DNA of 64,000 nt from Candidatus Wolfebacteria bacterium RIFCSPLOWO2_01_FULL_47_17b. Its GTDB lineage: Bacteria > Patescibacteriota > Minisyncoccia > UBA6257 > JAGOQP01. This document shows positions 18,801 to 34,423 of the stretch, in pieces. The notes under the pieces are model-generated. The model was given only the letters and a program-made list of their open reading frames with translations, was not told the origin of the DNA and made no database searches. Numbering within the stretch: position 1 is the stretch's first letter; every line of letters begins with the position of its first letter. A program made the translations under genes and the position numbers. The stretch lies in NCBI GenBank assembly GCA_001793865.1, contig MGIS01000024.1:21525-85524 (forward strand), written 5' to 3'.

Positions 18801-18836
18801 TTTTAAATTTGGTTATAATGTAGTATCAGCCGCCAT

Positions 18837-19779: not shown

Positions 19780-19909
19780 CCCCGCTAGAAGCCCTTGGCT
19801 GAAAATTTTTAACGAAATTTTCTGCGGGGCGCGAGCGGGGAGTTGTGCTATGGATAATCAAGTCACCCGAAATGAGCATGGGCTCTATAAGGACAGGCTT
19901 CTAACGGGG
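19780..19909. mobile_element. MITE-like element (TIR CCCCGCTAGAAG / CTTCTAACGGGG) immediately upstream of and overlapping start of ORF 19909
   Basis: Terminal inverted repeats with one mismatch; homologous to 58508-58634 copy; flanking TGAA direct repeat. Confidence 0.6.
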
Positions 19910-20685
19910 TGAATCGCTCGCGGACATACTTTTCCGTGTTTTTAGGCATAGTGATACTTTTTGTATCCTATTATGTTTCGCAATCTCTCTTTTTTTCGCG
20001 AAATAACGACAAGGATGCTCCTATCTCAAAAATTTTCAGTAGTGGAACGACTCCGAAGTTCGCCGAATCAATATCGGCAGGAAGTGTTTCCAATGTAAAT
20101 CTTACGCAGGCGCTCGTGAGCGATATAAGTGAGGATTTTTATACCAAAGTTGAAGGTCTCGACGCGCAAGGGCGTGAAGATCTATTCGCGCAAATTAAAG
20201 CGGGAAACGCGGAAAGTCTTAGCTTTGCGAATGTCGATCCCGATACGTTTGCGCAGCAGTTAACTCCCGAGCTTATCGGTATTCGTAACGAGATTTCGGA
20301 CGATGAAATAAAGTCAGATCCGAAGAATGATGTGGAAGCGTATAAAAAGCGTTACTTGCTTGCGGTAACCGATGTGCAGCTGCTTGTTTCTTCGCAAGAT
20401 GCAGCCGGAGTACTGCAATCCTTTATGGATCAAGGGGATGTCTCTGGACTGAACGCGATTGTGAACGCACATCGGGAGACATACGGCGCTTTACTGGACA
20501 TTCCGGTTCCCAAGAATGCGCTTGAATTCCATAAAAAGAATTTATTGTATTTTTCCAATTCTGCCGCTATCTACACTGCGCTTGGGCAATACCAATCCGA
20601 TCCTTTAAAAGGATACCTTGCGGTGCAGTATATGGGATCCATTTATCGGTTGTGGGATGAAATTTATTCAAGCGGCATTTTATGA
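19909..20685 (+). CDS. hypothetical secreted/membrane-anchored protein (GTG start inside MITE terminus)
   Basis: N-terminal TM/signal; first gene of T4SS-like cluster. Confidence 0.4.
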   Translation: MNRSRTYFSVFLGIVILFVSYYVSQSLFFSRNNDKDAPISKIFSSGTTPKFAESISAGSVSNVNLTQALVSDISEDFYTKVEGLDAQGREDLFAQIKAGNAESLSFANVDPDTFAQQLTPELIGIRNEISDDEIKSDPKNDVEAYKKRYLLAVTDVQLLVSSQDAAGVLQSFMDQGDVSGLNAIVNAHRETYGALLDIPVPKNALEFHKKNLLYFSNSAAIYTALGQYQSDPLKGYLAVQYMGSIYRLWDEIYSSGIL

Positions 20686-22679
20686 AACGGACTATTTTGA
20701 TTTTAATAATATGTACGGTTGTGGGATCGACCCTTGGTTTTCTGGTCCCGCCTCGGCGTGTGCACGCCCAAGCCGACGGTTCAGGGTGGGCGATATTCGG
20801 GGAAATGCTTGCGGAATGGGGCAAGACGATTTTGAAGTGGGTCGAGGATGAATTATGGCCGGTGCTTCGTGACCAAGCGGTGAAGCGGATAGTTGATGAT
20901 CTTACCGATCAGATAATAGATTCAATAGAAAACGGAGGAGAACCATTGTTTATACAGGATCCGCTGGGTGAATTACAGAGGGTGGGAGATATTACGTTTG
21001 ATACGTTTAATTCATATCTGGGAAGTGAAACGGGTGTAAACTTATGTGCGCCTTTTCAGGCTGAACTTTCATTATATTTTCAAACAACATTTCAACGAGA
21101 GCAGCCATTTGGGCTTCCTGTGCAATGTACATTTAGCGAATTTCAGCAGGCGTTGCAGGATAGCGCCCATTTGATTGAACGTGGTGGATGGGTGACGTTC
21201 CAGCAGGCATTTATTCCGAGTAATAATTTCTTCGGGGCATCTCTTCTTGTCGATCAAGCGTATATGAATGAGACACAGCGAAAGCTTAAAGAAGCAAGCG
21301 ACAGAATGAATAGAAATTTAGGATTTGACGATGTGAGTCTTTGTACCCAGTGGCGTAATCCTCGCTCAGGAGATCTGGCCGTTTCTGAGAACGAGGCGTA
21401 TAGCATGGCGCTTGAAATGAGTGGATACGCGATGCCGCTGACTCAAGACCAGGATCAACAAGTACAGAACATAATGGAAGGCCTTTGTACAAGACGCGAA
21501 ACGCTTACGCCCGGAAGCATTGTAGCGGAAGCTGCTACAAAAGGAGTTTTGAAAGATTTTGAATACGCGGCGAATGTGCAGAGTATCATATCCGCGCTTA
21601 TCAACACCGCGTTAAGCAAGGTGTTTGATAAAGACAAGGGAGGGCTGCTTGCGGCGCATAGTTCGGTGCGAGGGACGAGCTTTGGTTACGAGTCATATAC
21701 CGGCAAGACGTTCAAAGATCAGGTTGACGCGGCTATACGTGATTTGGAGGCGAAAAAAGAATCGTACTACGGGATCAACGCATACCTGCAGGTCCTGGAG
21801 CCGAAGATACTACATGCAAGAAGAGGCGCCCTTTCGGCAATAGCCCTATGTACGAACTGGTATGATACAAATAAAAATAATAACGAAGGGGGCGCTATCG
21901 GCTATCCACATTTCGGATATGTTATTTATGATCCGCAAGAAGGCATGCGTGTAACGGCAACTTTGGGAGATTTAGTTGAAATTCCGTTCGCGTCTTCCTC
22001 GCCTCTTTTTGCCGATTCGTGGGAAACGCTTTTTGACAGCAGTCCGGACAGCAACGGAGGGTTTTTTATGCGGGATCCTACGATGGGCGAGCCCCTCGCA
22101 CATGAAGGATACTTCACTGGGCTTGAGCGCGCGAGACGCGCCGCGCGGGACGCATTAAACGGCACCCCTGAGAATCCCGAAGGTATTTCGCGGCGTCTTG
22201 AGGGATACCTTGCCGAATTGCGGGCGATTCAAACCAATCCTGAAACCGGAATAAAGAATGCTGTTATCGCGTCATTGCAAGCGGGACCGCCGTCTTTGAC
22301 GGCAGACGAAGCGCGGGCAATATTCGAATCCGCGAGCTCCACTTTTGTTCTTGAATATATCGCGGATTCGACCGACCGCATGAACAGGATTCTTGGCATT
22401 GCGACAAGGGAATTCTCAGATTACACAAGCGAATTTTCTGTTGTGGTCAGCGATGCCGTAAGGCAAAGTTCATACGGGTCTGGGCCAGGAAACCTGAATA
22501 TAGCCAACCTTTCGCTCTCCGCGACACTCGATTCCCTTATCCAGGGATTCACAACCACTCCGTACGGGGCGTTTGTTGATTCCCGTCCGTGGACCGGGTC
22601 GCTTCATATAAAGAATCTTATCCGTAATAGTATTCCTGGAGAATATTCCCCCATGTTTTTCTGTGAAAATAGGACATGA
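20682..22679 (+). CDS. large hypothetical secreted protein
   Basis: 665 aa with N-terminal signal peptide; 4-nt overlaps with both neighbours (operon). Confidence 0.45.
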   Translation: MKRTILILIICTVVGSTLGFLVPPRRVHAQADGSGWAIFGEMLAEWGKTILKWVEDELWPVLRDQAVKRIVDDLTDQIIDSIENGGEPLFIQDPLGELQRVGDITFDTFNSYLGSETGVNLCAPFQAELSLYFQTTFQREQPFGLPVQCTFSEFQQALQDSAHLIERGGWVTFQQAFIPSNNFFGASLLVDQAYMNETQRKLKEASDRMNRNLGFDDVSLCTQWRNPRSGDLAVSENEAYSMALEMSGYAMPLTQDQDQQVQNIMEGLCTRRETLTPGSIVAEAATKGVLKDFEYAANVQSIISALINTALSKVFDKDKGGLLAAHSSVRGTSFGYESYTGKTFKDQVDAAIRDLEAKKESYYGINAYLQVLEPKILHARRGALSAIALCTNWYDTNKNNNEGGAIGYPHFGYVIYDPQEGMRVTATLGDLVEIPFASSSPLFADSWETLFDSSPDSNGGFFMRDPTMGEPLAHEGYFTGLERARRAARDALNGTPENPEGISRRLEGYLAELRAIQTNPETGIKNAVIASLQAGPPSLTADEARAIFESASSTFVLEYIADSTDRMNRILGIATREFSDYTSEFSVVVSDAVRQSSYGSGPGNLNIANLSLSATLDSLIQGFTTTPYGAFVDSRPWTGSLHIKNLIRNSIPGEYSPMFFCENRT

Positions 22680-24880
22680 AAAACCGCGCATTTAAAGTTT
22701 TTCTTATAAGCTGTATCATCTTTACACTGATTGTGGTGCCGTTTTTCGCGCAGGGACAGGTGCAGAATGCTCCTTCGGGGCTTCAGGATGTGGGGAGCAT
22801 AAACATCCCCATTATCGGGTTTGTGGTTAAGGCAATTCTGTATCTTGGTCTTGTTATTGAGGGACTTTTTATAGCGCTTGTGGGACAGTTTGTCGGGATA
22901 GCGCTTGGATTTAATGCAACGATTCTGAATTTTGATCCTCCCTTTATTACTATCGGATGGAGTTTGTTCAGGGACATCGCAAACCTTGGATTTGTCATCG
23001 GTATTGTGGTGATAGCGGTGATGACCATATTGCGGGTAAAAGGGTATCAGGCGCAGCAAATTTTGTGGAAGCTTGTTGTGGCGGCGCTTGTGGTGAACTT
23101 CAGCTTGCTTATAGGAGGCGCTATTATAGCTCCCGCGAACGCAATCTCGTGTTTTATTCTTTCATATTTTGGTCCGGGGGGAGAATGTACCGATGGAGCC
23201 ATGTACTCCGCGCAGATCGGGGACTCTTTTAGGTTTATCGATATTTCGACAAACGTTGCGCGGTGGTCCGATGGGCTTCTCTCGAATCTTGGTTCGATTG
23301 TTGGCATAGGAGACAGTGCGAGTTTGCTGGTGATCGCGAGCATGGCCGTAGTACTTATATTCGGGCTTGTGATGTTTCTTACGCTGCTCGCCATAGCGGG
23401 GATGCTCTTTCTGCGCTATTTTTATCTCTCGTTTTTACTTATTATTTCTCCAGTTGTGTGGCTGTTGTGGATATTTCCACATACAAAACAGCATTTCAGG
23501 AAATGGTGGAGTAAATTTATACACTGGGTTCTGTACGCGCCGTTTATGCTCCTTTTTATATATCTCGCGCTGCGGGTGCTGGACTTGTACGCGGATTCTC
23601 CTAATGGTGTGCTTAAAAACGCAACGGCGAGCGATTTTACGTGGATCGCGGGTGGGGATAATACCGGTATAAACTTTGGACTCCTGATGACAAGCATATT
23701 TGCGTCGGCGATTCTGATAGGCGGGCTGAAGCTTGCTGCGGAAATGGGGCACGGCGGGACGACGCTTGCATTGGGTGCGGTAACTGGAATGCAGAAGTGG
23801 GGGAAGAATTATATAAAGACAAAATCACAGCGGGCAGGAGCGCGGGCTGGAGTTGTCACAGCTGGAAAAGCATCAGCGGGATTGCGGGGGACTATGCAGA
23901 AGTGGTCTGAAAAATCTGGAACTTGGGGGAAGGTTGGTAAGGTTGCGTCAAAGATGACAGCACCTTTGCAACGTGGAGGCATACAGATGGAAGCAGCTCT
24001 TCAGAAAAAAGCATACGAAGGCATAGAAGAAAAGAAGAAGACATACGCAAAACTGTCCACGGATCAGCAAATTGCAATGTTGAAAACGACGGGAGGTGTT
24101 GAGGGACGAGCGGCCTTGCTCGAATTACTTGAAGGAGCGGATCAGTTGAGTGTCAAGAATACCGCTGGAATTGATACGTCCGCTGTCATAGCGGACATGG
24201 CGAAGAAAGGTAGAGGGAAAGAAGCTGCTAAGGTTGCAAAAAAGTTAGGCAAGAGCATTGATGTTGCGCGTCTTGAGACGGAAGGAAAGCAAGATGAAAA
24301 TGGCTGGTACATTGAATCAAAAACAGAATTTGGGCCTGATGGTAAAACGCCGAAAAGGGTATATGAAGGAGAAATATTTGATAAGGTGTTCGAGGGATTT
24401 TCGAAAGACGATATACAAAATTTTGTCAAAAATAATAAGGATTCATTTACAAAGGATCCTCTTGGCACAAACACACAGGTTTCAGACCGGCATCGAGACG
24501 CATATCGGGAGCGTTTGAGAGCTCAGATATTAAACCCACTTTCAAACTTTTCACAAAATATTTCGCTCGTGCTTAAGGGCGCGAAAGATAAAATGGCATT
24601 TTATGAGCAGATGGTTAAGGAATTGGTTCAGGAAGTGGGAAGGGAAACTGTTAAGATAAATGGCCTGAATGTAAATCTTTCCAAAATGGCCTCTCAGCGT
24701 TTTGCGCAGGGTGATGTCGATGGAGCATTTGAGTTGCTTGAGCAATCACAACATGAAAATGTCTCAAAGATGGCTAAGAAGTTAGGTAAAACTATGGGAG
24801 CACAGCTTATATCCGCGTTTGAAGGCGCTAGGGCTCCAGGTGAGCCAGAAGGAGAAAAGAAAGCAGAAAAAGAAAAATAG
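22676..24880 (+). CDS. VirB6/TrbL-like polytopic membrane protein with long Lys-rich C-terminal tail
   Basis: ~7 TM helices in first 330 aa, hydrophilic K/E-rich C-terminus; context with VirB4/PrgI-like genes. Confidence 0.4.
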   Translation: MKNRAFKVFLISCIIFTLIVVPFFAQGQVQNAPSGLQDVGSINIPIIGFVVKAILYLGLVIEGLFIALVGQFVGIALGFNATILNFDPPFITIGWSLFRDIANLGFVIGIVVIAVMTILRVKGYQAQQILWKLVVAALVVNFSLLIGGAIIAPANAISCFILSYFGPGGECTDGAMYSAQIGDSFRFIDISTNVARWSDGLLSNLGSIVGIGDSASLLVIASMAVVLIFGLVMFLTLLAIAGMLFLRYFYLSFLLIISPVVWLLWIFPHTKQHFRKWWSKFIHWVLYAPFMLLFIYLALRVLDLYADSPNGVLKNATASDFTWIAGGDNTGINFGLLMTSIFASAILIGGLKLAAEMGHGGTTLALGAVTGMQKWGKNYIKTKSQRAGARAGVVTAGKASAGLRGTMQKWSEKSGTWGKVGKVASKMTAPLQRGGIQMEAALQKKAYEGIEEKKKTYAKLSTDQQIAMLKTTGGVEGRAALLELLEGADQLSVKNTAGIDTSAVIADMAKKGRGKEAAKVAKKLGKSIDVARLETEGKQDENGWYIESKTEFGPDGKTPKRVYEGEIFDKVFEGFSKDDIQNFVKNNKDSFTKDPLGTNTQVSDRHRDAYRERLRAQILNPLSNFSQNISLVLKGAKDKMAFYEQMVKELVQEVGRETVKINGLNVNLSKMASQRFAQGDVDGAFELLEQSQHENVSKMAKKLGKTMGAQLISAFEGARAPGEPEGEKKAEKEK

Positions 24881-24885
24881 CACAC

Positions 24886-25923
24886 ATGATTCAGATTTCT
24901 CAACAACAACTTGAACGACGATGGGATGAGGCGCCAGACGAGATTCGGGACGGCATATTTTCGGATGAAAATAATGATGAGTTGGACAGGATAGGAGTCA
25001 CATATACTTTGAATCGTCAGCAGGAAAAAGATCTGGCATATCTGTGCCTGGTTACGTTCTTGGGATTCATCACCACGAAAGATGTATACAACCAGTTGCT
25101 GGAATTTTTCGGAGGAAATGCAAAGAGTGCGTACGATGTGTATGTGCTGTTGGATGTGAAGCTGTTCGGGCCGGTAAAGGGGCAAATAGAGGCGTTTCGG
25201 AAGACGCACTGGATTCCGGATGAGCAGGCCGATGTTCAACTTTCCCAGACCAAGGTTGAACCTCCACGCATGGAACAGAGGGTGGATTTGAAGAAGAGAC
25301 CGGAGAAAGATGCGGTCAATTTAAAAACAGAAGAGATTAAAAAGGTGGAGTCGGAGCCTGGACCGGTGGTGGTGTCACAAGTTAGAAGTGAGAAGCTAGA
25401 AGTGAGAAGTGAACAAAAAGAGCAAGTCCCCGCTGCTGTTCTTCCAACCTCCAACTTCCAACCCCTAACTTCTCAACCGAAATTGTTTTCGCCACACGAT
25501 TTTCACTTGAGAGGTGAGAAGTGGGCTGTGAGTAGTGAGAAAACTCAGTCTTCACAATCCGTAACTCAAAACCCACAACCCACTACTCAAAACCTAGACG
25601 AAGGGCCCATCATTCTTCACAAAAAGGAGGAATCTATTCCGATTGCGGAAGCGAATAGGTATAAAGAATATAAAAATATATCGGCGGGAGGATTTTTGGG
25701 GTCGTTTGGAAGCATATTCAACAGGAAGCGGGAACAGCAGAATCAGGCGCCGAGGGCGAGCGTGGAGATACCGGAGGCGTATACCGAAAACCGTATACCG
25801 TATACCGAATCAGGGAAGGTAGGGGAGAAAGTTCCGGTGAAGGTGAAGAATTTCGGAGATGAGCGAAGCAATGTGCAGTACAGTGATTATAGGACATATC
25901 TAAAACAAAGAGACCAGAGTTAA
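24886..25923 (+). CDS. hypothetical protein with internal short tandem repeats
   Basis: Repeats 'agaagtgagaag' x2, 'cgtataccg' x3, plus in-frame palindromic element 25234-25261. Confidence 0.4.
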   Translation: MIQISQQQLERRWDEAPDEIRDGIFSDENNDELDRIGVTYTLNRQQEKDLAYLCLVTFLGFITTKDVYNQLLEFFGGNAKSAYDVYVLLDVKLFGPVKGQIEAFRKTHWIPDEQADVQLSQTKVEPPRMEQRVDLKKRPEKDAVNLKTEEIKKVESEPGPVVVSQVRSEKLEVRSEQKEQVPAAVLPTSNFQPLTSQPKLFSPHDFHLRGEKWAVSSEKTQSSQSVTQNPQPTTQNLDEGPIILHKKEESIPIAEANRYKEYKNISAGGFLGSFGSIFNRKREQQNQAPRASVEIPEAYTENRIPYTESGKVGEKVPVKVKNFGDERSNVQYSDYRTYLKQRDQS

Positions 25924-26030
25924 TTTTTAATTATGATTTTCGAATTTCGAATCAATTTTAAATGACTGAATTTCTAAAATCAATACATTCGAGTTTGACT
26001 CGAAATTCAAAATTAGAAATTCGGGATTAT
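25924..26030. repeat. AT-rich GAATTTCGAAT-type palindromic intergenic repeat, copy B (solo)
   Basis: ~90% identical to copies D and E. Confidence 0.7.
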
Positions 26031-26039
26031 ACCTAAAAC

Positions 26040-26558
26040 ATGCAATTTTCAGTACCACAATTCATTGATGTTGAAAGCAAGATTGTCGGGCCGCTGACCA
26101 TCAAGCAATTTGTGCTGGTGGCGGTGCCGGCATTGTTGACATTTGTGCTCTTTTTCGTACTGCACATTGCCTTCTGGATTCCGATCGCGGCAATCTTGGT
26201 TGGCGTTGGTGTATCGTTTGCTTTCATAAAAGTAGACTCCCGTCCTTTGTATATGATTGCGCTCTATGCCCTCAAATTCTTTTGGCAGCCGAAACTGTAT
26301 TTATGGAAGCCGGCGGTTATAACCGAGAAAGTTATTATTCCCGAGATACAAAAGAAACGATTCGAGCTTAAGACACTTATACCCGATTTTTCGAAGGTCA
26401 ATAAGCTATGGCAGGACATGACCACGACTAAAAACCCCATTCCGAAGCGCGAAAAAATACTTCCCAAAGCGATGCTGCAAGAAGTGCAAGAACAGTACCA
26501 GGTGTTTAGAAAATTGAGCGGCGAACGGGAGATAGCGAAGAGAGTGGACTTTAGATGA
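26040..26558 (+). CDS. PrgI/TcpE/VirB3-like small conjugation membrane protein
   Basis: Two adjacent TM helices after 'IVGPLTIKQFVLVAV' segment, precedes VirB4. Confidence 0.45.
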   Translation: MQFSVPQFIDVESKIVGPLTIKQFVLVAVPALLTFVLFFVLHIAFWIPIAAILVGVGVSFAFIKVDSRPLYMIALYALKFFWQPKLYLWKPAVITEKVIIPEIQKKRFELKTLIPDFSKVNKLWQDMTTTKNPIPKREKILPKAMLQEVQEQYQVFRKLSGEREIAKRVDFR

Positions 26559-27016
26559 AAATTTTGAATTTCGAGTTCTGAATTTCGAATCAATTTTAAA
26601 TTATTGAATTATGAAGAACAGGCTGTCAGATACAACATATAACCTTGAAGAGCGAACCGCCGCATTTGGTGAAAAGATTATTAAACTCTGCAGAAGCATC
26701 CCGCAAGATGTTATCACGAAACCAATCATTAATCAGCTCATCCGTTCCGGGACGAGTATAGGTGCAAATTATATGGAAGCGAATGCCGCTAGCTCAAGGA
26801 AAGATTTCAAGAACAAGATTTTTATCTGTAAGAAAGAATCTCAAGAAACGCAGCATTGGCTTAGGATGATGGCACAATGCGTGCCGGGAAAGAAGGAGGA
26901 AATTAGAAATTTATGGAAGGAAGTGCATGAGTTGATATTAATATTTGGAAAAATTGTTTCAACATTAAGAAATTAGAATTTGAATCGAAATTCAAAATCA
27001 AGAATTCGAAATTCCC
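26557..27016. mobile_element. loaded copy of AT-rich palindromic repeat carrying a four-helix-bundle gene between its arms
   Basis: Left arm 26560-26610 and right arm 26977-27016 match left and right halves of solo copies B/D/E. Confidence 0.6.
26611..26976 (+). CDS. four-helix-bundle protein (23S rRNA IVS-protein / Avd-like family)
   Basis: 'QLIRSGTSIGANYMEANAASSRKDFKNKIFICKKESQETQHWL' matches TIGR02436-type consensus. Confidence 0.7.
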   Translation: MKNRLSDTTYNLEERTAAFGEKIIKLCRSIPQDVITKPIINQLIRSGTSIGANYMEANAASSRKDFKNKIFICKKESQETQHWLRMMAQCVPGKKEEIRNLWKEVHELILIFGKIVSTLRN

Positions 27017-27075: not shown

Positions 27076-27738
27076 ATGGCAGAGGTGACATACGCTCCGA
27101 ACTCCACTCAGCAGTTTGTGGATGTGGAGCGGATCAAAAACGGAATTGTGGAGCTACGGAGCGGATCCATTCGGTCCGTTATTATGGTTGGCGGCGTAAA
27201 CTTCGAGCTGAAATCTGAAGAAGAACAAAACAGCATAATCGCCGCGTATCAGAATTTTTTGAACGCGCTCGATTTTTCTCTGCAGATACTGGTTCATTCG
27301 CGCAAGCTGAACATCGATCGATACCTGGATAAGATGCAAGGGATTCACGAAAAAGAGCAAAACGATCTTCTGCGCAATCAGATAGCCGAATATATCGAAT
27401 TTGTACGGGGGTTTGTGAAAGAAAATGAGATTATGGCAAAAAACTTTTTTGTCGTAGTGCCGTATGACGGAGGCGGCGTCGCGGAGCTCAAAAAAGGCAT
27501 TTCGAGCGTGCTACCGTTTTTCGGTAAGAAGAAGAATGCTGCAAAGGGAAAACAGGAGACCTATGAGCAGAAAGTGGTGCAGCTTAAGCAGCGCGTGGAT
27601 GAGGTGGTAAGCGGGCTTGAGCGGATCGGTCTGCGGGCAATCCCGTTGCAGGACGATGAGCTCACGGAGCTATATTACAATTTATACAATCCGGAAACAG
27701 TCGAAAAAGAACTGAAAAAACATGGAGCAGAAGATTAG
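27076..27738 (+). CDS. VirB4/TraC-like conjugation ATPase, N-terminal portion (split gene)
   Basis: N-terminal VirB4 region 'ELRSGSIRSVIMVGGVNFELKSEEEQNSIIAAYQNFLNALDF'; ends at A6 tract 27731-27736. Confidence 0.6.
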   Translation: MAEVTYAPNSTQQFVDVERIKNGIVELRSGSIRSVIMVGGVNFELKSEEEQNSIIAAYQNFLNALDFSLQILVHSRKLNIDRYLDKMQGIHEKEQNDLLRNQIAEYIEFVRGFVKENEIMAKNFFVVVPYDGGGVAELKKGISSVLPFFGKKKNAAKGKQETYEQKVVQLKQRVDEVVSGLERIGLRAIPLQDDELTELYYNLYNPETVEKELKKHGAED

Positions 27739-29476
27739 GATTTCACAAAAGAATATTTCGGAGGACAGTGAAGTGAAAAATCTTATCGCTCCGGCGGCAA
27801 TCCAGTCCAATCAGTCGCACTTGAAGGTGGGAAATAAATTTGCGAAGACGTTTTTTGTTTTTTCGTACCCACGGTATCTTTCGAGCGGATGGTTTTCGCC
27901 GATTATCAATCTCGCGAAGTTGTTTGATATATCCATTTTTGTGCACCCGGTGGATACCGCGTTGGCGCTTCGCAATTTGCGCAAAAAAGCGGCGCAGGTT
28001 GAAGCCGAGATTCTGGACAGGCAGGAAAAGGGATATGTGCGGGACCCCATGCTTGAAACCGCGTTCGGCGACATCGAGGGCTTGCGGGATAATCTTCAAC
28101 AGGCGCAGGAGCGGTTGTTCGATACGGCGGTGTACGTAACCATCTATGCCGAGACGCTTGAAAAATTGCAGGAATTGGAGGATACACTGGTGAACTTATT
28201 TGAGAGCAAGCTCATATACATCAAACCGGCAATTTTCCAGCAGGTGGAGGGCCTCGTGTCTACGTTGCCGCTCGCGCAAGACAAGCTTGCGATTCATACG
28301 CCTCTGAATTCCGGCCCGGTATCGTCGTTTTTTCCGTTCACGTCCATGGATCTTACGTCGGAGAACGGGATAATGTATGGCATAAATTTGCACAATAATT
28401 CGCTTGTGCTCTTCGATCGATTTTCTTTGGAAAACGCGAACCAGGTTGTGTTCGCCAAGTCGGGAAGCGGAAAATCGTACGCAACGAAGCTGGAAATTTT
28501 GCGTACGCTTATGATGGGGACCGAGGTAATCGTGGTGGATCCGGAAAAAGAGTACAAGAATTTGTGTGATACCGTTGGAGGCACGTATTTCAATGTATCG
28601 CTTACGTCGGATCAGCACATAAATCCTTTCGACATACCATTCGTACCGGAAGGAGAAGATCCGGCAGATGTATTTCGTTCACACATACTGACGATGGCGG
28701 GGCTTTTGAAGATTATGTTGGGAGATATTGCCGTGGAAGAAGAAGCTCTTCTGGACCGGGCTATAAGTGAAACATACTCGTCGTTCGACATTACACCGGA
28801 TAATCCTAACTTTTTAAAACTGGATGCGCCTCTTCTGTCCGATTTTGAGACCGTTTTGCGAAATATGGAGGGCGGAAAAGATATGGCGGAACGATTGTAT
28901 AAATATACACAAGGAAGCTACGCGGGGTTCGTGAATCAAAAGACAAATATAGATGTGCAGAACCGGCTGGTTGCGTTTTCAATACGAGATTTGGAGGACG
29001 AGCTGCGGCCGATTGCCATGTATGTCATCCTTAACTTTATTTGGAACTTGGTGCGGTCGCAGATGAAACGGCGCATACTTGTGATAGATGAAGCATGGGT
29101 GATGATGAAATACCCCGAAGGGGCAGCCTTTTTGTTCGGGATGGCGAAGCGCGGGCGTAAATATTACCTAGGCCTTACCACTATCACGCAGGAAGTTGAC
29201 GACTTTCTGAATTCGCCGTATGGGAAGCCTATTATCACCAACTCGTCGTTACAGCTTCTTTTGAAGCAAGCACCAGCGACCATAGATACGGTTGCAAAGA
29301 CGTTCAACCTGACCGAAGCGGAGAAGAATCTTTTGCTTGAGGCGGGCGTGGGACAGGGAGTGTTTTTCGCGGGATTGAAGCATGTTGCCATGCAGGTGGT
29401 GGCCTCGTACTTTGAGGATAAAATTATTACGACCAAGCCGCAACAATTATTATCGGAAGAGGAGCCACTCGTATAA
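27722..29476 (+). CDS. VirB4/TraC-like conjugation ATPase, C-terminal ATPase portion
   Basis: Walker A 'AKSGSGKSYATK', Walker B 'RRILVIDEAWVMM'; overlaps upstream ORF in +1 frame. Confidence 0.8.
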   Translation: MEQKIRISQKNISEDSEVKNLIAPAAIQSNQSHLKVGNKFAKTFFVFSYPRYLSSGWFSPIINLAKLFDISIFVHPVDTALALRNLRKKAAQVEAEILDRQEKGYVRDPMLETAFGDIEGLRDNLQQAQERLFDTAVYVTIYAETLEKLQELEDTLVNLFESKLIYIKPAIFQQVEGLVSTLPLAQDKLAIHTPLNSGPVSSFFPFTSMDLTSENGIMYGINLHNNSLVLFDRFSLENANQVVFAKSGSGKSYATKLEILRTLMMGTEVIVVDPEKEYKNLCDTVGGTYFNVSLTSDQHINPFDIPFVPEGEDPADVFRSHILTMAGLLKIMLGDIAVEEEALLDRAISETYSSFDITPDNPNFLKLDAPLLSDFETVLRNMEGGKDMAERLYKYTQGSYAGFVNQKTNIDVQNRLVAFSIRDLEDELRPIAMYVILNFIWNLVRSQMKRRILVIDEAWVMMKYPEGAAFLFGMAKRGRKYYLGLTTITQEVDDFLNSPYGKPIITNSSLQLLLKQAPATIDTVAKTFNLTEAEKNLLLEAGVGQGVFFAGLKHVAMQVVASYFEDKIITTKPQQLLSEEEPLV

Positions 29477-29895
29477 TGGAAGAGGTACAAGAAGGAATTG
29501 AACAAGTAGATGAATCGGTGGAATTGTCCGAAGAAACTGAAGAAGATGAGCTGAATCGTCCGCGGTTTGATATTATAGAATCGTTTTTTTTAATAGCGTT
29601 TAATGCCCTGGGGGATATTGCGGAGCTTCTCGATATAACGGGTGTCGGCGTCGTGGTGGGGCTCGCTGTTGATTTTATAAATGGACCTCTTACCGTGATG
29701 TATTTGTGGATTAAGGGCGTGCCTCGGACAGTAGGCAAAAACGCGCTTGCGCAGACGGTTGAGCTTTTCCCTTTTATCGATATTCTTCCGATACGTACCG
29801 TCGCGATAGTATATACGATATTAATTACCAATCATCCCGAGCGTTTTCGGAAACTACAGTCGGCGCTTTCTTTCGCAAAAAAGGTTAAAAAGTGA
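29476..29895 (+). CDS. hypothetical acidic small membrane protein
   Basis: Acidic N-terminus, two hydrophobic segments; start overlaps VirB4 stop. Confidence 0.35.
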   Translation: MEEVQEGIEQVDESVELSEETEEDELNRPRFDIIESFFLIAFNALGDIAELLDITGVGVVVGLAVDFINGPLTVMYLWIKGVPRTVGKNALAQTVELFPFIDILPIRTVAIVYTILITNHPERFRKLQSALSFAKKVKK

Positions 29896-29906
29896 CGGCG
29901 ATGCCG

Positions 29907-29962
29907 TCATCCTGAGCGAAGCGAAGGATCTCATGAAAACGAGGAGATTGCTTCGCTTCACT
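29907..29962. repeat. imperfect inverted repeat GTCATCCTGAGCGAAGCGAAGGATCTC...GAGATTGCTTCGCTTCACTCGCAATGAC
   Basis: ~27-nt arms, ~80% complementary, 11-nt loop. Confidence 0.5.
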
Positions 29963-29966
29963 CGCA

Positions 29967-30671
29967 ATGACAAGATGTATGTTATATACTATGTGCATGA
30001 ATAAAAGGTTTCCGCACCTTTTTGTGCCCGTATTTTTTACCTTCCTTTTTGCCGTCTTGGCGTTGTCCGCACAAGCGGCGGATCCGCAGTTTTTGGTGAC
30101 GTGGAAAGCACAGACGAAGGTTCCGGTGTGGTATGAAGGCAAAGCGCTTGCGGTGCAGAACAGCTCGGTGCTTGTGTCGCTTGCGATGGTAGAGCAGAGC
30201 GGGAAACTCCTTAATCTTAGCGGATCTGAAATCCGATGGTATCTGAAAGGGGAATTGGTGCAGAAAGGGACGGGACTCACGTCCATTTCGGTTCTGAATA
30301 AGGACTTTTCGGGAAACTATATAGATCTGAAAGTTTCGGTTGAATATGCCGATCAGCAGAGCGGCAGGCGGTTTATTGATGCGTACTACACTATTCCTAT
30401 CGTAAGTCCCAAAGCGGTGGTAGAGTATAAGAATCTTCAACCCTCATACGTTGCCGGATCCGATCTTTTGGTGAAAGGCTATCCGTTCTTCTTCACAAAT
30501 TCGTATCTGAAGTCCGAATGGGACCTCGGCGGATCGCAAAAAGTGCAAGATTCATATGAACTTCGCATTGAACAGGCGCCAGCGGGAATACGCAGTATTC
30601 AATTTGCCGTATGGAACCCGAGCAGGGTGCTCGAAAAGGCGCAGAGCACGCTTTATTTACAGAGCAACTAG
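29967..30671 (+). CDS. hypothetical secreted protein
   Basis: N-terminal signal peptide ending 'ALSAQA'. Confidence 0.45.
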   Translation: MTRCMLYTMCMNKRFPHLFVPVFFTFLFAVLALSAQAADPQFLVTWKAQTKVPVWYEGKALAVQNSSVLVSLAMVEQSGKLLNLSGSEIRWYLKGELVQKGTGLTSISVLNKDFSGNYIDLKVSVEYADQQSGRRFIDAYYTIPIVSPKAVVEYKNLQPSYVAGSDLLVKGYPFFFTNSYLKSEWDLGGSQKVQDSYELRIEQAPAGIRSIQFAVWNPSRVLEKAQSTLYLQSN

Positions 30672-30776: not shown

Positions 30777-31058
30777 ATGGATGTTGAACAGATAAAAGTG
30801 AAAATCGTGCCAATACTCAAATCCGCTGGGGTTACGCGGTCGTCTTTGTTCGGCTCGGTCGTGCGGGGCGAAGCGACGGAATCCAGCGACGTTGATGTAC
30901 TGGTTGAATTTCCAAAAGGGAAAACGCTCCTTGATTTGGTGCGCCTGCAGAATGAGTTGGAGGGCGCACTTGACAGACGGGTTGATGTTTTGACGTATAA
31001 GTCACTACATCACTTGTTTCGAGACGAAGTTCTTAAAAGCCAAGTCCCCATACTATGA
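30777..31058 (+). CDS. mntA: MntA-like nucleotidyltransferase antitoxin
   Basis: 'LFGSVVRGEATESSDVDVLVEF' minimal nucleotidyltransferase motif. Confidence 0.75.
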   Translation: MDVEQIKVKIVPILKSAGVTRSSLFGSVVRGEATESSDVDVLVEFPKGKTLLDLVRLQNELEGALDRRVDVLTYKSLHHLFRDEVLKSQVPIL

Positions 31059-31396
31059 GAAAAGATCCTCAAACGCTCCTTAAACACATTAAAGAGAGTA
31101 TCGAATGGGTTGAATCATATGTTGCAGGACTTTCGTTTGAAGATTTTTTTAGATCGCAGGAAAAACAGGATGCCGTTTCAAAACGATTGGAGATAATCGG
31201 CGAAGCGGTGAAAAATCTTCCGCAAGAAATACGGGATGCACACACAGAGATTCCGTGGAAAGAAATAACAGGTATGCGGGATCGGCTTATACATGAGTAC
31301 TTTAGCATTGATGCGGAATTGGTGTGGGATACGATTGGATCTGATATGACGAAGTTAAAAAAATGGGTTGTGGAATTCTTGAATAAAAAGGAATAA
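31055..31396 (+). CDS. hepT: HepT-like HEPN (DUF86) toxin
   Basis: HEPN R-x4-6-H motif 'RDRLIHEY'; 4-nt overlap with mntA. Confidence 0.75.
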   Translation: MRKDPQTLLKHIKESIEWVESYVAGLSFEDFFRSQEKQDAVSKRLEIIGEAVKNLPQEIRDAHTEIPWKEITGMRDRLIHEYFSIDAELVWDTIGSDMTKLKKWVVEFLNKKE

Positions 31397-33240
31397 TGAA
31401 AACAATTTTTATAATTTTATTTGTGCTCCCCATCTTTTCTTTCGGTACCGTTGTATATGCGCAGACGACGACGATATCAAGTAGTTCGCTTGCGCTGGAT
31501 CAGATACCCGGAGACCCAACCAACCCGCAGGGGCCGGCGGATCTGGTGCAGAAGATATTTGCGTTCGCGATATACATTGCAGGCACGCTTGCGGTCATTA
31601 TGATCGTATACGGCGGCGTGCGGTATGTGGTTGAAGCGGGCAATACCGCGTCGCAGACCGAAGCCAAGGAAGTATTGAAAGGAGCGGTATGGGGAATTAT
31701 CCTGCTTGCCGGCGGTTGGCTGATACTCAATACCATAAATCCCCAGCTTACCAATCTTTCGAACCTGGGCTTGCAAAACGTGACGATACACGGGAATACG
31801 TCGCAGTTAGAGCCGCCCGAGGGGCAGTTTGATACGGGTGGTAATCTTGGTGATAATACTCTCGGGTGTACGGTTGAAAATATAGGGATGTCGTACAATG
31901 ATCCAAACAGTGGATTGCAAAAGATTGCTATTGATTACCTTGCTACCACTCCAAATCTGGATTCTGGTGGAGATTGTGGCGTGAATACGAGTCCGAGAAA
32001 CATTGTTAATGCGGTTGCGGGCGGTACCATCCCGCAGGTATGTGATCGGAGCGACAAAAATCAATCATGTAGTTGCGAGCAAGGAGGTGATACGAATAAA
32101 AAAACGCTCTGTCCACTTCTTTTGCAGCGGCTTACTATTCTTCAGCAGAATGCAAGCGTGCTTCCATCATTCACAATTGAGAGTTTGACGGGGGGAGATC
32201 ATTCGCCGGGATCAACTCATTATCAGGGAAGAGGTGTTGATATTACTGTGCCGGGAGGCAGTATTGGTGACTGGCAGAATGTGCGTGCGGCAATGGTGCA
32301 AGCCGGATTTCGGTCTGCAAAATTTGAATACAATAGGAATGGCAGACCATACTTTTCTCCAGGAAGTGGAAATGACGGCGACTTCCTCGCATCAGGGAGT
32401 ACAAACCAGCATATACATGCTGAATCAGGAGGAGCAGGAAGCCCTCCTCCAGGTAGTGAAAATCAATTATTGGAAGATTTGAAGAATCTTGCATTGCAAC
32501 TTGACTTGAATAAATTTAAGGGCGATATGTCCTGGGGGCTTCCATCGAGTACCCTTGATCCTACGTATACATGTAATGCGGGATCCGATCCGCGCTCAAT
32601 TATCAGCGAGACCTCAAAGATGAATCTTCCGATGGTGTGTGATACAAGCGCGTACGGGACGATCCCGGGAACCGATAACGTTTTTTCGGTTGACTGTTCA
32701 TGTAATGTTGGCGGTAAAGATGGAGTTCGTGTGTTGGATAAGCGTTTGCTCCAGAAACTCGTTTCCCTACAAGAAAGCGGTATTGACTATAGGGTCGTTT
32801 CCTTAACGGGAGGCGTACATAAAAATGACGGAATTGCGAGTAGTCACCATTATAGCGGTACCGCGCTGGATGTGGTTCCAATGAGCGGCTCGGTAATATC
32901 TCAAAATCAATCTGATTGGATTGCGCTGTATAATGCTGTCAAATCTGCTCAGCCGATCGCCGGAATCGTTGATTATATATACGATGAGGTGAACACGGAT
33001 TCCAAGATCGTATTTGAAGGGGTTACGCCGATTGAGTATAGGTGGATTGATAGTATTATTACAAAGCCTACTAATGATACTTTGGCATTGCTTCAGTGCC
33101 CCACAATGAATTTCAGCGGGAGCAGTCCAACACATTTGTACAGCATATTTGAGATTAAAAATCCCATCGCAGATTCACGCTTTCATACCGAGATTATAGG
33201 GAGGTGCTACAATCCGCGTATTCGAGCAGTCGTGAATTAA
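31396..33240 (+). CDS. VirB2/TrbC-pilin-like N-terminal domain fused to large Cys-rich extracellular region with two M15/LAS-peptidase-like repeats
   Basis: Signal peptide plus two TMs; repeats 'HSPGSTHYQGRGVDI' and 'ASSHHYSGTALDV' resemble 'SxHxxGxAxD' Zn-site of M15 peptidases. Confidence 0.4.
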   Translation: MKTIFIILFVLPIFSFGTVVYAQTTTISSSSLALDQIPGDPTNPQGPADLVQKIFAFAIYIAGTLAVIMIVYGGVRYVVEAGNTASQTEAKEVLKGAVWGIILLAGGWLILNTINPQLTNLSNLGLQNVTIHGNTSQLEPPEGQFDTGGNLGDNTLGCTVENIGMSYNDPNSGLQKIAIDYLATTPNLDSGGDCGVNTSPRNIVNAVAGGTIPQVCDRSDKNQSCSCEQGGDTNKKTLCPLLLQRLTILQQNASVLPSFTIESLTGGDHSPGSTHYQGRGVDITVPGGSIGDWQNVRAAMVQAGFRSAKFEYNRNGRPYFSPGSGNDGDFLASGSTNQHIHAESGGAGSPPPGSENQLLEDLKNLALQLDLNKFKGDMSWGLPSSTLDPTYTCNAGSDPRSIISETSKMNLPMVCDTSAYGTIPGTDNVFSVDCSCNVGGKDGVRVLDKRLLQKLVSLQESGIDYRVVSLTGGVHKNDGIASSHHYSGTALDVVPMSGSVISQNQSDWIALYNAVKSAQPIAGIVDYIYDEVNTDSKIVFEGVTPIEYRWIDSIITKPTNDTLALLQCPTMNFSGSSPTHLYSIFEIKNPIADSRFHTEIIGRCYNPRIRAVVN

Positions 33241-33244
33241 TATC

Positions 33245-34423
33245 ATGAGAAGAGTAATTATCATACTTATCATAGTTGTTATTATCGCGATCATTGCGGG
33301 TGTTGTATTCGCGCTGTTGGACTCCGGTAACGGAGATGGTGAAGATTCTCCGTTGAAAAACGTATTTCCAATTTCTCTCCTGTATCCCGATACATCTTCT
33401 ACTCCCGGTGTCTTCATTCCAGGAAGTGGCGGAGGAAGCGGTGGGTACACTGAGGAGACCGATGAATACGCGGAAGGTTCTGCTGTGCATCCGATCCCAC
33501 TTTCACAGGAAGAGATATATGGATACTGGGTTTCGAGCAGTACGGCATTCTTTTTGACCAAAGACGGGGACCTGAAGAAAAACGACGGGACTGGAGAATT
33601 TTCACTTCTGTCGCATTCATACGGCATACCGCTTAGGGTAAAGCAAAATCTCGCTGGGACCGCCGCCGCGGTGAAGTTTGATTCCGGATCCACGTATCTA
33701 TATATAGAAAGCCGCAATGCGTGGGAGTTTTTGGGCAATGCCATAAGCGACTTTGCATTTTCGCCGGACGGCAACAGTTTATTGGCGCTTGAAGAACGGG
33801 GAAGTGAAATGTCCATGGTGCGACACGAGCCATTTACAACACCGAAGCGCGCCGTGACGCTGCTTCGTATGAGTGGTGTGGATTTGCGCGTGCAGTGGCC
33901 GAGCGCAAATCGGGCGGTGCTTTCATCGGTGCCTTCATACTATGCCGAAAGTCAGATATGGGAAATAAACCTGCAAACGCAGACATTTAGAAAAATAGCA
34001 GTGGGAAGCGGTATGAGCGCAATTACCTCGCCGTTCGTCACGCGCACGGTTGTCTTTACGCCCGAATCGAAACAGAAAATGGTTGCACGTTTGTATGCCT
34101 CGGATGGAACTCAGGTGAATTCTTATTCCAGAATGCTTCTTGAGGCAAAGTGCGGTGCATCGCTGAGTGATCCCATTGTGTGGTGCGGCGCCCCTCAGCT
34201 TGTACCTGCCGATGCTCACGTGTTTCCCGATGATTATCTTCAGCGTGAGGTATTTACGCACGATGAACTCGCGGGCATCGCGCTTGATACGGGAGAATTT
34301 TTCACGATTCCGTTCAGGTCCGACTCATATGTGGATATGTCTGGAGTCAAACATAGTAATGGTGTTGTGTATTTTATAAACCGACTTGATGATAGATTAT
34401 ATAAACTAGAAGTTGGACTTTAG
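33245..34423 (+). CDS. membrane-anchored beta-propeller-like protein (TolB-like repeats), hypothetical
   Basis: N-terminal TM, 'DFAFSPDGNSLLA' repeat. Confidence 0.35.
   Translation: MRRVIIILIIVVIIAIIAGVVFALLDSGNGDGEDSPLKNVFPISLLYPDTSSTPGVFIPGSGGGSGGYTEETDEYAEGSAVHPIPLSQEEIYGYWVSSSTAFFLTKDGDLKKNDGTGEFSLLSHSYGIPLRVKQNLAGTAAAVKFDSGSTYLYIESRNAWEFLGNAISDFAFSPDGNSLLALEERGSEMSMVRHEPFTTPKRAVTLLRMSGVDLRVQWPSANRAVLSSVPSYYAESQIWEINLQTQTFRKIAVGSGMSAITSPFVTRTVVFTPESKQKMVARLYASDGTQVNSYSRMLLEAKCGASLSDPIVWCGAPQLVPADAHVFPDDYLQREVFTHDELAGIALDTGEFFTIPFRSDSYVDMSGVKHSNGVVYFINRLDDRLYKLEVGL

Follow-up and report, generated by a model that had tools for sequence, protein, structure and literature searches.

The plus-strand gene cluster at 19909-34423 very probably encodes a chromosomal type IV secretion system (T4SS) that is inherited vertically in the Patescibacteria clade, with MPF-FATA monoderm ancestry, and is not a conjugative element. 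The DNA comes from a CPR bacterium, a member of Wolfebacteria in the class Paceibacteria. The recognisable core consists of a TrsD-like protein and VirB4, PrgI/VirB3, an extended VirB6-like protein, and a protein that joins a VirB2-like pilin domain to LAS-type peptidases, all encoded by open ORFs; beside it lie a TolB-like propeller and five lineage-specific conserved envelope proteins. No VirB8-like component was detected in the cluster, and six of its 14 genes have no assignable function. The first-pass annotation had proposed a chromosomal, non-conjugative T4SS as seen in small-genome episymbionts, a reading upheld by the CPR origin, T4SS matches beyond VirB4, the local absence of coupling protein (T4CP), relaxase and integrase, the conserved neighbourhood and the native composition. 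The ORFs that it named were all recovered at their positions by ORF check and HMM search, and three others (24886-25923, 26611-26976, and 29476-29895) complete its gene list.

The system as such is already described: the survey by Quinonero-Coronel et al. (2025; PMC12102498) covers the T4SS, the missing relaxase and the dnaA/ksgA neighbourhood. Nearly all ultra-small CPR/Patescibacteria carry a relaxase-free chromosomal T4SS cluster near the replication origin, and the survey describes their own VirB4 clade, the associated TrsD, and the proximity to dnaA and ksgA. Its dataset lists a Wolfebacteria genome (GCA_001793815.1) as positive for VirB4.

Genomic Setting and Inheritance

The window (the whole 64-kb stretch of DNA analysed) includes the cluster and its flanks, where Pfam places dnaA, dnaN, rnpA, yidC, polA, ksgA, pyrG, and metG; dnaA and dnaN adjoin the region, dnaA lying ~16 kb from the cluster. 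A recurrent order, uvrD-ksgA-...-VirB6-PrgI-TrsD-VirB4-...-pilin, is kept in the loci of 80 other species with VirB4 identity down to 58%, and the same uvrD-ksgA neighbourhood holds the cluster in dozens of other Paceibacteria species. The GC content and GC3 of the cluster (0.465 and 0.488) are close to those of the remaining window (0.477 and 0.518), with no sign of foreign composition. Conserved gene order across species, combined with flank-like composition, argues for vertical inheritance rather than a mobile element. Flanking direct or att repeats were not found around the cluster, no tRNA stands beside it (the sole tRNA is 19 kb off), and no relatives were found on viral contigs. Among its neighbours, a UvrD/PcrA-type helicase is conserved upstream, and ComM is encoded 5 kb upstream.

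The absence of VirD4, relaxase and integrase, already noticed in the first pass, holds in Pfam searches for all ORFs of at least 80 aa in the window and extends to the 10 kb on its left and ~6 kb on its right. The absence of T4CP and relaxase is a local statement, covering ~80 kb out of the 728 kb in the draft genome, and a VirD4-like gene may lie elsewhere in it.

VirB4 and the Separate trsD Gene

The two ORFs first read together as VirB4 both exist, but the first (27076..27738, plus strand) is a trsD-like gene, equivalent to a separately encoded VirB4 N-terminal domain. Its NCBIfam matches are to VirB4_plasma (1.3e-12), TrsD (5.5e-10, below cut-off), and positions 2-102 of the CD1110 profile, and its product aligns with the N-terminus of the ~790-aa single-chain VirB4 from other Parcubacteria. 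The longest trsD ORF begins with a TTG at 26980, within a hairpin arm; the ATG at 27076, favoured by the homologs, is the most likely start. The second ORF (27722..29476, plus strand) encodes a VirB4 ATPase of the CD1110/MPF-FATA type, with a 17-nt overlap between its start (ATG, +1 frame) and the 3' end of trsD. This C-terminal part matches Pfam P-loop_TraG (1e-31) and, in NCBIfam, the CD1110-family VirB4 (NF045971, 374 bits against a cut-off of 325), VirB4_plasma (2e-86) and, partially, CedB (3e-11). The Walker A (AKSGSGKS) and Walker B (ILVIDE) motifs are intact. The protein is 100% identical to the NCBI entry 'conjugal transfer protein TraC' of Ca. Wolfebacteria RIFCSPHIGHO2_01_FULL_48_22. 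It has ~8000 homologs, and among the best 120 all organism names given are CPR/Parcubacteria; the nearest plasmid VirB4s, from monoderms and of the CD1110 family, are 29-35% identical.

In 78 of 79 related loci, trsD is a separate ORF, with junctions that abut, overlap or stand wide apart, and whole genes are inserted between trsD and virB4 in four loci (L005, L013, L041, and L042). Identity to relatives is 58-83% in the C-part and 36-67% in the N-part (trsD), levels that point to purifying selection. Judged by these sequences, the trsD/virB4 split is an old, conserved two-gene arrangement, not a frameshift.

Membrane and Pilin Components

Two further core proteins pass their Pfam gathering scores, PrgI and the T4SS pilin, and two more, TrsD and TrbL, are matched below threshold, so the T4SS components extend beyond VirB4. 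The PrgI/VirB3-like protein (26040..26558, plus strand), small and with two TM helices, keeps its first-pass assignment (Pfam PrgI 3.9e-6, 27.7 bits against 27); its gene stands immediately upstream of trsD in 73 loci. The product of 22676..24880 (plus strand) has a signal-like N-terminus, ~7 TM helices and a hydrophilic 354-aa tail with 13% Lys, in line with the 7-TM, Lys-rich VirB6/TrbL-like protein first described. Its Pfam TrbL match (E 0.0094) scores 16.2 bits, short of the gathering score (25.9); eight of the 57 members of the family match TrbL (best 6.7e-6) and no other family recurs, while a PDB profile search returned coiled-coil noise only. Together with topology and synteny (58 loci), the TrbL match tentatively suggests an extended, polytopic VirB6/TrbL-like protein.

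The pilin gene (31396..33240, plus strand) encodes a VirB2-like T4SS_pilin domain with two TM helices at residues ~49-114 (31.5 bits against 26.6; NCBIfam Mbov_0395 pilin-like 0.0015, below the equivalog cut-off), followed by two Hedgehog/LAS (M15-like) zinc-peptidase domains. The first LAS domain carries the motif H-x6-D ... HIH; the second keeps H-x6-D, but its terminal IH is changed to IR and the last His ligand is missing. The peptidase domain aligns with the zinc site of sonic hedgehog. A Foldseek search with the AF2 model (mean pLDDT 62.7) placed Hedgehog N-domains in the best 36 positions, then M15 L-Ala-D-Glu peptidases (E 3e-3 to 5e-2, reported probability 1.0). The fusion of pilin and peptidase, recognised from the start, stands, but the peptidase is better named a Hedgehog/LAS zinc-peptidase fold than 'M15'. 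Elsewhere in the Parcubacteria, the fusion partners of the pilin domain are wall hydrolases of the SLT, VanY or CHAP type.

Accessory Envelope Proteins

The cluster opens with two genes that had been taken for those of large secreted proteins. The second (20682..22679, plus strand) does encode a 665-aa, largely alpha-helical protein with a signal peptide, but the first (19909..20685, plus strand), which begins the conserved block, encodes a mostly helical protein of only 258 aa with one N-terminal TM anchor. In 12 close loci, a homolog of the 258-aa protein stands at the equivalent place; the protein has no match in Pfam, NCBIfam or PDB. The 665-aa protein is syntenic in ~25 loci, and its AF2 model (pLDDT 63) found no fold match in PDB. 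Some of its relatives carry the short N-terminal motif of DUF4141 (39.9 bits in P0150 and P0152), which the window protein itself does not match. DUF4141 belongs to the Bacteroides conjugative-transposon gene located between traG and traJ.

Downstream of the VirB6-like gene lies a low-complexity soluble protein of 345 aa (24886..25923, plus strand), conserved in the close clade and with no match in Pfam, NCBIfam or PDB. After virB4, a protein of 139 aa, acidic at its N-terminus and with two TM helices (29476..29895, plus strand), is kept in 12 close loci; it is followed by a beta-rich, secreted or anchored protein of 234 aa (29967..30671, plus strand), syntenic in 23 loci and without a match in a PDB profile search. 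The last gene (33245..34423, plus strand) encodes a TolB/WD40-like beta-propeller anchored by an N-terminal TM helix, as initially described; its family profile matches WD40 (1.4e-18) and TolB (1e-12) in PDB, and its homologs, syntenic in 23 loci, show scattered propeller Pfam matches.

Repeats and Inserted Genes

Strain-specific insertions in the cluster region comprise MntA/HepT, an IVP gene in an AT-rich hairpin, and a minus-strand block. The hairpin repeats had been said to punctuate the module: two copies do lie inside it, but only two, and the repeat is genome-wide and intergenic (9990, 25913, 41601, and 45047, with a weak copy at 53965). A solo 120-nt copy of repeat family D1 (25913..26032; fold -24.4 kcal/mol, z -2.3) occupies the space that separates prgI from the 345-aa gene. 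The other copy (26560..27013, plus strand; repeat families D2/D3) is split by a four-helix-bundle 23S_rRNA_IVP ORF (26611-26976, Pfam 3.2e-16), which sits at the apex, the arms 26560-26615 and 26957-27013 pairing in the MFE fold. This element has a GC content of 0.388 against 0.47, and an IVP gene occurs at the same junction only in L005, L007, and L015; it is an insertion and not part of the T4SS. The same is true of the toxin-antitoxin pair at 30777..31396 (plus strand), correctly named earlier except for its order, which is MntA (30777-31058, Pfam 2e-15) then HepT (31055-31396, 2.7e-29, GC 0.392): a strain-specific insertion missing from all 80 related loci.

Relation to Known Systems

The closest likeness is to the Patescibacteria-clade T4SS (PMC12102498; Ca. 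Southlakia epibionticum ML1, Wang et al., 2023), with which the cluster shares the VirB4 lineage, TrsD beside virB4, PrgI/VirB3, a VirB6-like protein, the PF18895 VirB2-like pilin, the lack of relaxase and, in Paceibacteria, a chromosomal position near dnaA, dnaN, rnpA, and ksgA. It differs in having no VirB8- or VirD4-like gene in the locus, a single pilin gene fused to two LAS domains instead of the array of small pilins of Saccharimonadia, and extra genes: those of the Wolfebacteria clade (258, 665, 345, 139, 234, and 392 aa), the IVP hairpin element, and MntA/HepT. Monoderm MPF-FATA modules (CTn2/Tn916-like CD1110, pGO1 TrsC-TrsD-TrsE, and pCF10 PrgH-PrgI-PrgJ) share the CD1110 VirB4 (374 bits), a separate TrsD-like gene (as in pGO1), a PrgI-family VirB3, a polytopic VirB6-like protein, a wall hydrolase, and the lack of an outer-membrane core complex. 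Unlike them, the cluster has a VirB4 of only 29-35% identity, no relaxase, T4CP or oriT, a VirB2-like pilin, normally absent in Gram-positives, and a LAS peptidase instead of SLT/CHAP, and it is neither plasmid nor ICE. NCBIfam also gives matches to the Mycoplasma ICE proteins Mbov_0395 (pilin-like) and Mbov_0397 (VirB4), all below equivalog cut-offs. The Mycoplasma system likewise belongs to a wall-less or monoderm MPF-FATA lineage and has a small pilin-like protein, but it is carried by a mobile ICE that encodes a DDE recombinase. The T4CP-less systems Bordetella Ptl, Brucella VirB, H. pylori ComB and archaeal Ced are likewise chromosomal, lack a local coupling protein and relaxase, and have taken on new roles in toxin export or DNA import. 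However, they are diderm or archaeal (VirB7-10 or CedA) and show no orthology to the cluster beyond the VirB4 ATPase core.

Possible Functions

Within the preferred reading, it is possible, if doubtful, that the cluster is a nucleic-acid import machine like H. pylori ComB or archaeal Ced, supplying a nucleotide-auxotrophic symbiont from the host. Import requires neither T4CP nor relaxase, ComM is encoded nearby, and the T4SS has been proposed as a nucleotide-acquisition route, given that Ca. S. epibionticum can do without ComEC. In a 2026 preprint, a cultivated member of the phylum is also reported to take up host RNA and to bear T4SS-pilus-like tubes, by a mechanism that its authors leave open. 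However, the weak similarity to CedB is limited to the shared ATPase core, and the cluster has neither a ComB-type VirB7-10 set nor a nucleic-acid-binding domain.

It is improbable that the cluster is the mating-pair-formation module of a working conjugation system, exporting DNA with T4CP and relaxase encoded elsewhere in the genome. T4CP genes are indeed often distant from virB4, VirD4-like genes occurring in 2,918 genomes of a 3,035-genome Patescibacteria dataset, mostly far from virB4 (PMC12102498); the CD1110 family is conjugative, and the conserved UvrD/PcrA-type helicase would also fit. Yet relaxases occur in only 103 of the 3,035 genomes, whose T4SSs have no distinctive features (PMC12102498), none is encoded in the ~80 kb here, and the fixed chromosomal position, with 99.3% of nearest neighbours within the class (PMC12102498), speaks against transfer. 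A decaying integrated conjugative element, colonised by selfish genes and with a frameshift-broken VirB4, could account for the two overlapping frames and for the toxin-antitoxin pair, IVP gene and hairpins inside the cluster, but is effectively refuted by the conserved split with its varied junctions, identities that imply purifying selection, intact catalytic motifs, open core ORFs, the recognition of TrsD as a separate gene family, and native composition with no integrase or att site.

In a vertically inherited chromosomal T4SS, VirB4 and its separate N-domain would dock on PrgI and VirB6 in a single membrane and provide the energy to assemble a channel or a conduit resembling a pilus. The pilin-anchored LAS peptidase could take the VirB1 role, cutting peptidoglycan peptide cross-links of the cell itself or of the host, and the secreted and anchored accessory proteins would form the extracellular part contacting the host bacterium. 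Functional data on such T4SSs come from another class, Saccharimonadia, in which Ca. S. epibionticum cannot grow epibiotically without its T4SS genes. As to cargo, uptake of host macromolecules (nucleic acid), already proposed in the literature, seems slightly more likely than export of Sec-independent or periplasmic effectors; a role in adhesion or as a pilus only is unlikely, and other functions are unlikelier still. The machine would operate without a dedicated coupling protein and may serve the episymbiotic lifestyle.

Chromosomal setting and mobility

The window is chromosomal and adjoins the origin, with dnaN (1190-2308, minus strand) and dnaA (2485-3861, minus strand). The cluster (19909-34423, plus strand) is preceded by rnpA, yidC, jag, polA, ComM, UvrD (15130-16929) and KsgA (16922-17719), and followed by genes for a PAS histidine kinase, CTP synthase, an AI-2E transporter, MetRS and S20. 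T4SSs of Paceibacteria have been reported near dnaA, dnaN, rnpA and ksgA (Quinonero-Coronel et al., 2025; PMC12102498), and the cluster, close to the same genes and with no relaxase nearby, follows this pattern. The first-pass annotation had seen no VirD4, relaxase or integrase, and had read the cluster as a chromosomal T4SS that is not mobile. Indeed, ORFs of at least 80 aa in the 64-kb window gave no Pfam match to a relaxase of any MOB class, a coupling protein (VirD4/TraG or TcpA/FtsK-like) or an integrase, and precomputed Pfam matches showed none of the three in the 10 kb to the left and about 6 kb to the right. P-loop translocase-type matches in the window were limited to VirB4, UvrD, ComM and DnaA. 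The cluster is not surrounded by flanking direct repeats longer than 12 nt, the sole tRNA found in the window with Rfam (tRNA-Leu) lies 19 kb away, and the Y1_Tnp genes are 5 kb and 26 kb distant. When checked for signs of horizontal origin, the GC (0.465) and GC3 (0.488) of the cluster matched those of the other window genes (0.477 and 0.518); the AT-rich outliers were the IVP genes, HepT and the two Y1 transposases.

Gene order was compared by tblastn of the window's proteins against 80 related loci from other species. The core order uvrD-ksgA ... VirB6-PrgI-TrsD-VirB4 ... pilin persists where VirB4 identity is as low as 58%, and the close clade shares the fuller order uvrD-ksgA-(258)-(665)-VirB6-(345)-PrgI-TrsD-VirB4-(139)-(234)-pilin-(propeller)-HK-pyrG, where numbers denote protein lengths. 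Given this synteny, the native composition and the local absence of att repeats, a tRNA target and an integrase, the ICE reading is rejected and that of a chromosomal, non-mobile T4SS is supported; mobilome surveys should leave the cluster out of their mobile elements. No relatives of its VirB4 were found on viral contigs. Across Paceibacteria, and down to 58% VirB4 identity, a short (599-aa) UvrD/PcrA-type helicase and KsgA stand directly upstream of the T4SS block (15130-17719 here; loci L001-L080); conserved gene order close to the origin is the probable reason. At the window edge, a 976-aa ORF belongs to a gene that extends beyond the window end.

Gene content of the cluster

The ORF map and translations reproduced all of the plus-strand genes originally listed, but that list was incomplete, lacking a 345-aa low-complexity protein, a 23S_rRNA_IVP gene and a 139-aa protein with two TM segments. 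Besides VirB4, HMM searches gave T4SS matches for PrgI and T4SS_pilin, both above Pfam gathering scores, and the MntA/HepT pair (30777-31396) was likewise clearly matched by Pfam. PrgI (26040-26558; PF12666, 27.7 bits, gathering score 27) is a VirB3 homolog adjoining trsD/virB4, and its position is kept in 73 loci. The proposed VirB6/TrbL-like protein (22676-24880) has the TM segments (about seven) and the Lys-rich tail (354 aa, 13% Lys) ascribed to it, and its N-terminus is signal-like. Its match to TrbL/VirB6 PF04610 (16.2 bits) falls under the gathering score of 25.9; among its syntenic homologs, 8 of 57 match TrbL (E<=0.01, best 6.7e-6) and no other family is recurrent. The topology and the position fit a VirB6 identity.

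The remaining proteins are less easily assigned. Profile searches against PDB sequences gave nothing meaningful for the VirB6-like, 258-aa, 345-aa and 234-aa families, NCBIfam held no matches for the unassigned proteins of the cluster, among them those of 258, 345, 139 and 234 aa, and no VirB8/TcpC-like protein was identified in it. The 665-aa protein (20682-22679) had no fold match with its own structural model; some members of its family carry a DUF4141 N-terminal motif, the mark of a Bacteroides conjugative-transposon gene sited between traG and traJ. The beta-propeller membrane protein (392 aa; 33245-34423) was correctly recognized, as it is N-terminally anchored and of TolB/WD40 type (profile matches in the PDB of 1.4e-18 to a WD40 protein and 1e-12 to TolB). 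Together, six conserved envelope proteins, five of them unassigned and the sixth this TolB-like propeller, would define a lineage-specific extracellular part.

A promoter and terminator scan returned counts like those of shuffled sequence, and therefore no operon map is claimed. The end of the propeller gene overlaps by 11 nt with a gene for a cytoplasmic PAS-HisKA-HATPase histidine kinase (34413-35639). The close clade keeps this kinase gene (51-57% identity) as the immediate 3' neighbor of the cluster, no response regulator being encoded close by, and the kinase might regulate the T4SS. Between the 139-aa and 234-aa genes lies a GC-rich inverted repeat (GTCATCCTGAGCGAAGCGAAG / CTTCGCTTCACTCGCAATGAC; 29906-29971), with a related copy at 7420-7465 within the region of a 683-aa gene; either a terminator-like element or a dispersed repeat is a possible reading.

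VirB4 and the trsD-virB4 split

VirB4 (27722-29476) is of the monoderm CD1110/MPF-FATA type, according to NCBIfam (NF045971, 'VirB4-like conjugal transfer ATPase, CD1110 family'; 1.2e-111, 374.3 bits, cutoff 325), Pfam (P-loop_TraG, 1e-31) and its intact Walker A (AKSGSGKS) and Walker B (ILVIDE) motifs. As a measure of similarity only, it is 58-94% identical to many CPR proteins, compared with 29-35% for its best plasmid relatives, which are CD1110-family ATPases of Firmicutes and Actinobacteria. The upstream ORF (27076-27738) matches N-terminal regions of NCBIfam VirB4 profiles and the TrsD model of the TrsD/TraD family (NF041427, 5.5e-10, under the 200-bit subfamily cutoff); a TrsD-like protein, homologous to the VirB4 N-terminus, is encoded beside virB4. 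Its start is most likely the ATG at 27076, because the longer TTG start falls inside a hairpin arm. Joined together, the N and C parts align over 98-99% of the single-chain VirB4s (about 790 aa) of other Parcubacteria, at about 60% (60-63%) identity. Among the T4SS accessories of Patescibacteria, the TrsD and VirB4 pair has been described as the most common (PMC12102498).

The description of VirB4 as two ORFs is correct as to their number, but the upstream one is a separate, TrsD-like gene in an old arrangement. In the window, the virB4 ATG overlaps the end of trsD by 17 nt. An A-rich run is present at this junction, but any frameshift there would have to be +1, and an in-frame slippery heptamer is absent. 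In 78 of 79 loci, from the set fetched for 80 other species, trsD and virB4 are separate ORFs, whether overlapping, abutting or apart, and in every frame relation. Whole genes can also stand between them, namely PDDEXK_3 genes (L005:9578-9967, L013:1438-1836, L041:9458-9868), an IVP gene (L042:2592-3020) and RHH-like genes on the minus strand (L029:7657-7914, L052:9287-9514); another small junction ORF was recorded in L044 (8705-8899, minus strand). The conserved split and the intervening genes rule out a frameshifted or pseudogene VirB4. From these comparisons, the split appears to be ancient and tolerant of whole-gene insertions, which argues that the VirB4 N-domain would act in trans.

The pilin-peptidase fusion

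The protein encoded at 31396-33240 carries a VirB2-like pilin domain near virB4 (T4SS_pilin PF18895, 31.5 bits against 26.6), which is matched by all 30 syntenic homologs searched; it also weakly matches the model of the pilin-like Mbov_0395 of a Mycoplasma ICE. This protein had been annotated as a pilin-like/M15-peptidase fusion. The pilin domain stands, but the Pfam M15 model finds no match in the protein. In an AF2 model (mean pLDDT 62.7; residues 150-380 at 70-93), the 36 best Foldseek matches in the PDB were all Hedgehog N-domains (probability 1.0, E from 3e-3), followed by M15 L-Ala-D-Glu peptidases; 'M15-like' is therefore acceptable in the sense of the LAS fold. In alignments, the zinc ligands of domain 1 are H275-x6-D282 and H339-I-H341, and phmmer aligns the first motif with the zinc site of Sonic hedgehog; domain 2 keeps H-x6-D, and its terminal His is replaced by Arg. 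Domain 1 is thus a predicted LAS (M15/Hedgehog-type) zinc peptidase with the ligands H-x(3-6)-D and H-x-H.

The fusion has few homologs. About 10 of 40 homologs, from the close clade alone, have the pilin domain attached to LAS, and SLT, VanY or CHAP domains are fused to T4SS_pilin in single relatives from other Parcubacteria. The carriers of SLT lytic transglycosylase, VanY or CHAP fusions are the homologous proteins P0129, P0131 and P0134 and one locus homolog. Most of the syntenic 'pilin' genes encode 250-600 aa, above small-pilin size, and the 'VirB2-like pilin' domain of Paceibacteria most often (28 of 39 homologs) anchors a larger extracellular domain in the membrane and is not a free pilus subunit. 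Fusion to LAS, SLT, VanY or CHAP fits a putative VirB1-like, wall-opening role. The Wolfebacteria clade has a single pilin-domain protein, in fusion with LAS wall peptidases, and this protein is a candidate for the missing VirB1 function.

Hairpin repeats and insertions

A 120-nt AT-rich repeat occurs as ORF-less intergenic copies at 9990-10109, 25913-26032, 41601-41720 and 45047-45166, with a weak copy at 53965-54063. It folds as a single long imperfect stem with modest z-scores (-2.0 to -2.3), and the hairpin repeats matched no Rfam family. Copies do punctuate the module, as first noted, and the one at 25913-26032 fills the gap 5' of prgI, but others are intergenic elsewhere; the repeat is a genome-wide intergenic element and no T4SS feature. 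In the copy at 26560-27013 the IVP ORF (26611-26976) interrupts the apex, while the two arms pair with each other in the MFE fold. This layout, a long stem with an ORF in the loop, is like that of intervening sequences in 23S rRNA and hints at a small element, mobile or MITE-like. The same pattern is seen in a second 23S_rRNA_IVP gene (40775-41218, minus strand). It lies between inverted arms (40773-40812 and 41240-41290) of another sequence family, which also occurs as an ORF-less hairpin at about 37324-37416, between pyrG and the AI-2E transporter gene; the fold z-scores are weak (-1.1 and -1.4).

An IVP gene is found at the prgI-trsD junction in 3 of the 80 loci (L005:8438-8803, L007:620-988, L015:8867-9223). 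Junction ORFs in related Paceibacteria include PDDEXK_3 (GxxExxY) nucleases, IVP four-helix-bundle genes, RHH antitoxin-like genes and a MazF fragment. The prgI-trsD and trsD-virB4 junctions resemble hot spots at which small selfish ORFs insert. MntA/HepT is absent from all 80 loci, as is a minus-strand block between ksgA and the first cluster gene (17728-19601), which is therefore a strain-specific insertion; it encodes a PaaX-like Cas2-fold protein, a 112-aa protein with two TM segments and a 254-aa polytopic membrane protein.

Other elements in the window

A diversity-generating retroelement occupies 46997-50210. Its target gene (46997-48487) combines a type IV pilin-like N_methyl signal with an FGE-sulfatase/C-type-lectin-like domain and contains the variable repeat (about 48353-48450), followed by bAvd (48557-48928), the template repeat (about 48935-49032) and the reverse transcriptase (49071-50210). 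The two repeats are 87% identical, and differ mostly at template adenines. Directly after the reverse transcriptase, and convergent with it, lies a gene for a Fic/DOC-domain protein (50186-51253, minus strand). Two IS200-like Y1 transposase genes of low GC (0.35-0.36) are each bracketed by short GC-rich palindromes, 14369-15085 (plus strand) by 14337-14359 and 15084-15106, and 60268-60951 (minus strand) by 60228-60280 and 60960-61007, an arrangement reminiscent of REP-associated tyrosine transposases.

Significance

Patescibacteria account for much of bacterial diversity. VirB4 has been found in 2,417 of 3,035 of their genomes, with 2,425 of 2,474 homologues forming one clade nested in MPF-FATA, and TrsD, PrgI/VirB3, VirB6 and PF18895 pilins have been reported near virB4; T4CP homologs are usually far from it, and relaxases occur in only 103 of the 3,035 genomes (PMC12102498). 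The T4SS is already known from this survey and the present instance is catalogued there, as the 728-kb Paceibacteria MAG given as this genome (GCA_001793815.1) is listed with VirB4 = Yes (PMC12102498, Table S1). The locus brings no new system class and is a clean Paceibacteria example; modestly new are the evidence for trsD and virB4 acting as separate genes and for the operon junctions as insertion hot spots, the pilin-LAS peptidase fusion and the set of conserved envelope proteins of the Wolfebacteria clade.

Pfam and NCBIfam revealed no orthologs of ComB2-4, ComB6-10, VirB7-10 or CedA/CedA1/CedA2 in the cluster, and CedB of archaeal Ced is matched only by the generic ATPase core of VirB4 (3e-11, against a 700-bit cutoff); the cluster would not, on this evidence, belong to the ComB/Ced-type DNA-import T4SSs. 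The Patescibacteria T4SS matters, as its genes were essential for epibiotic growth in the sole species tested (Ca. Southlakia epibionticum, Tn-seq). The literature calls its role 'completely unknown' and proposes effector delivery or nucleotide acquisition, and a 2026 preprint on a cultivated relative describes host-RNA uptake and T4SS-pilus-like tubes. By homology, VirB4 would power a channel or pilus and the anchored peptidase would open the wall. A more speculative and rather doubtful extension is an essential, coupling-protein-independent import conduit, in which the pilin-anchored LAS domain would breach the host wall and VirB4/TrsD-VirB3-VirB6 would pull in host RNA or DNA. If import were its function, the T4SS would be the feeding tube of a nucleotide-auxotrophic Paceibacterium, and neither a secretion nor a mating device.
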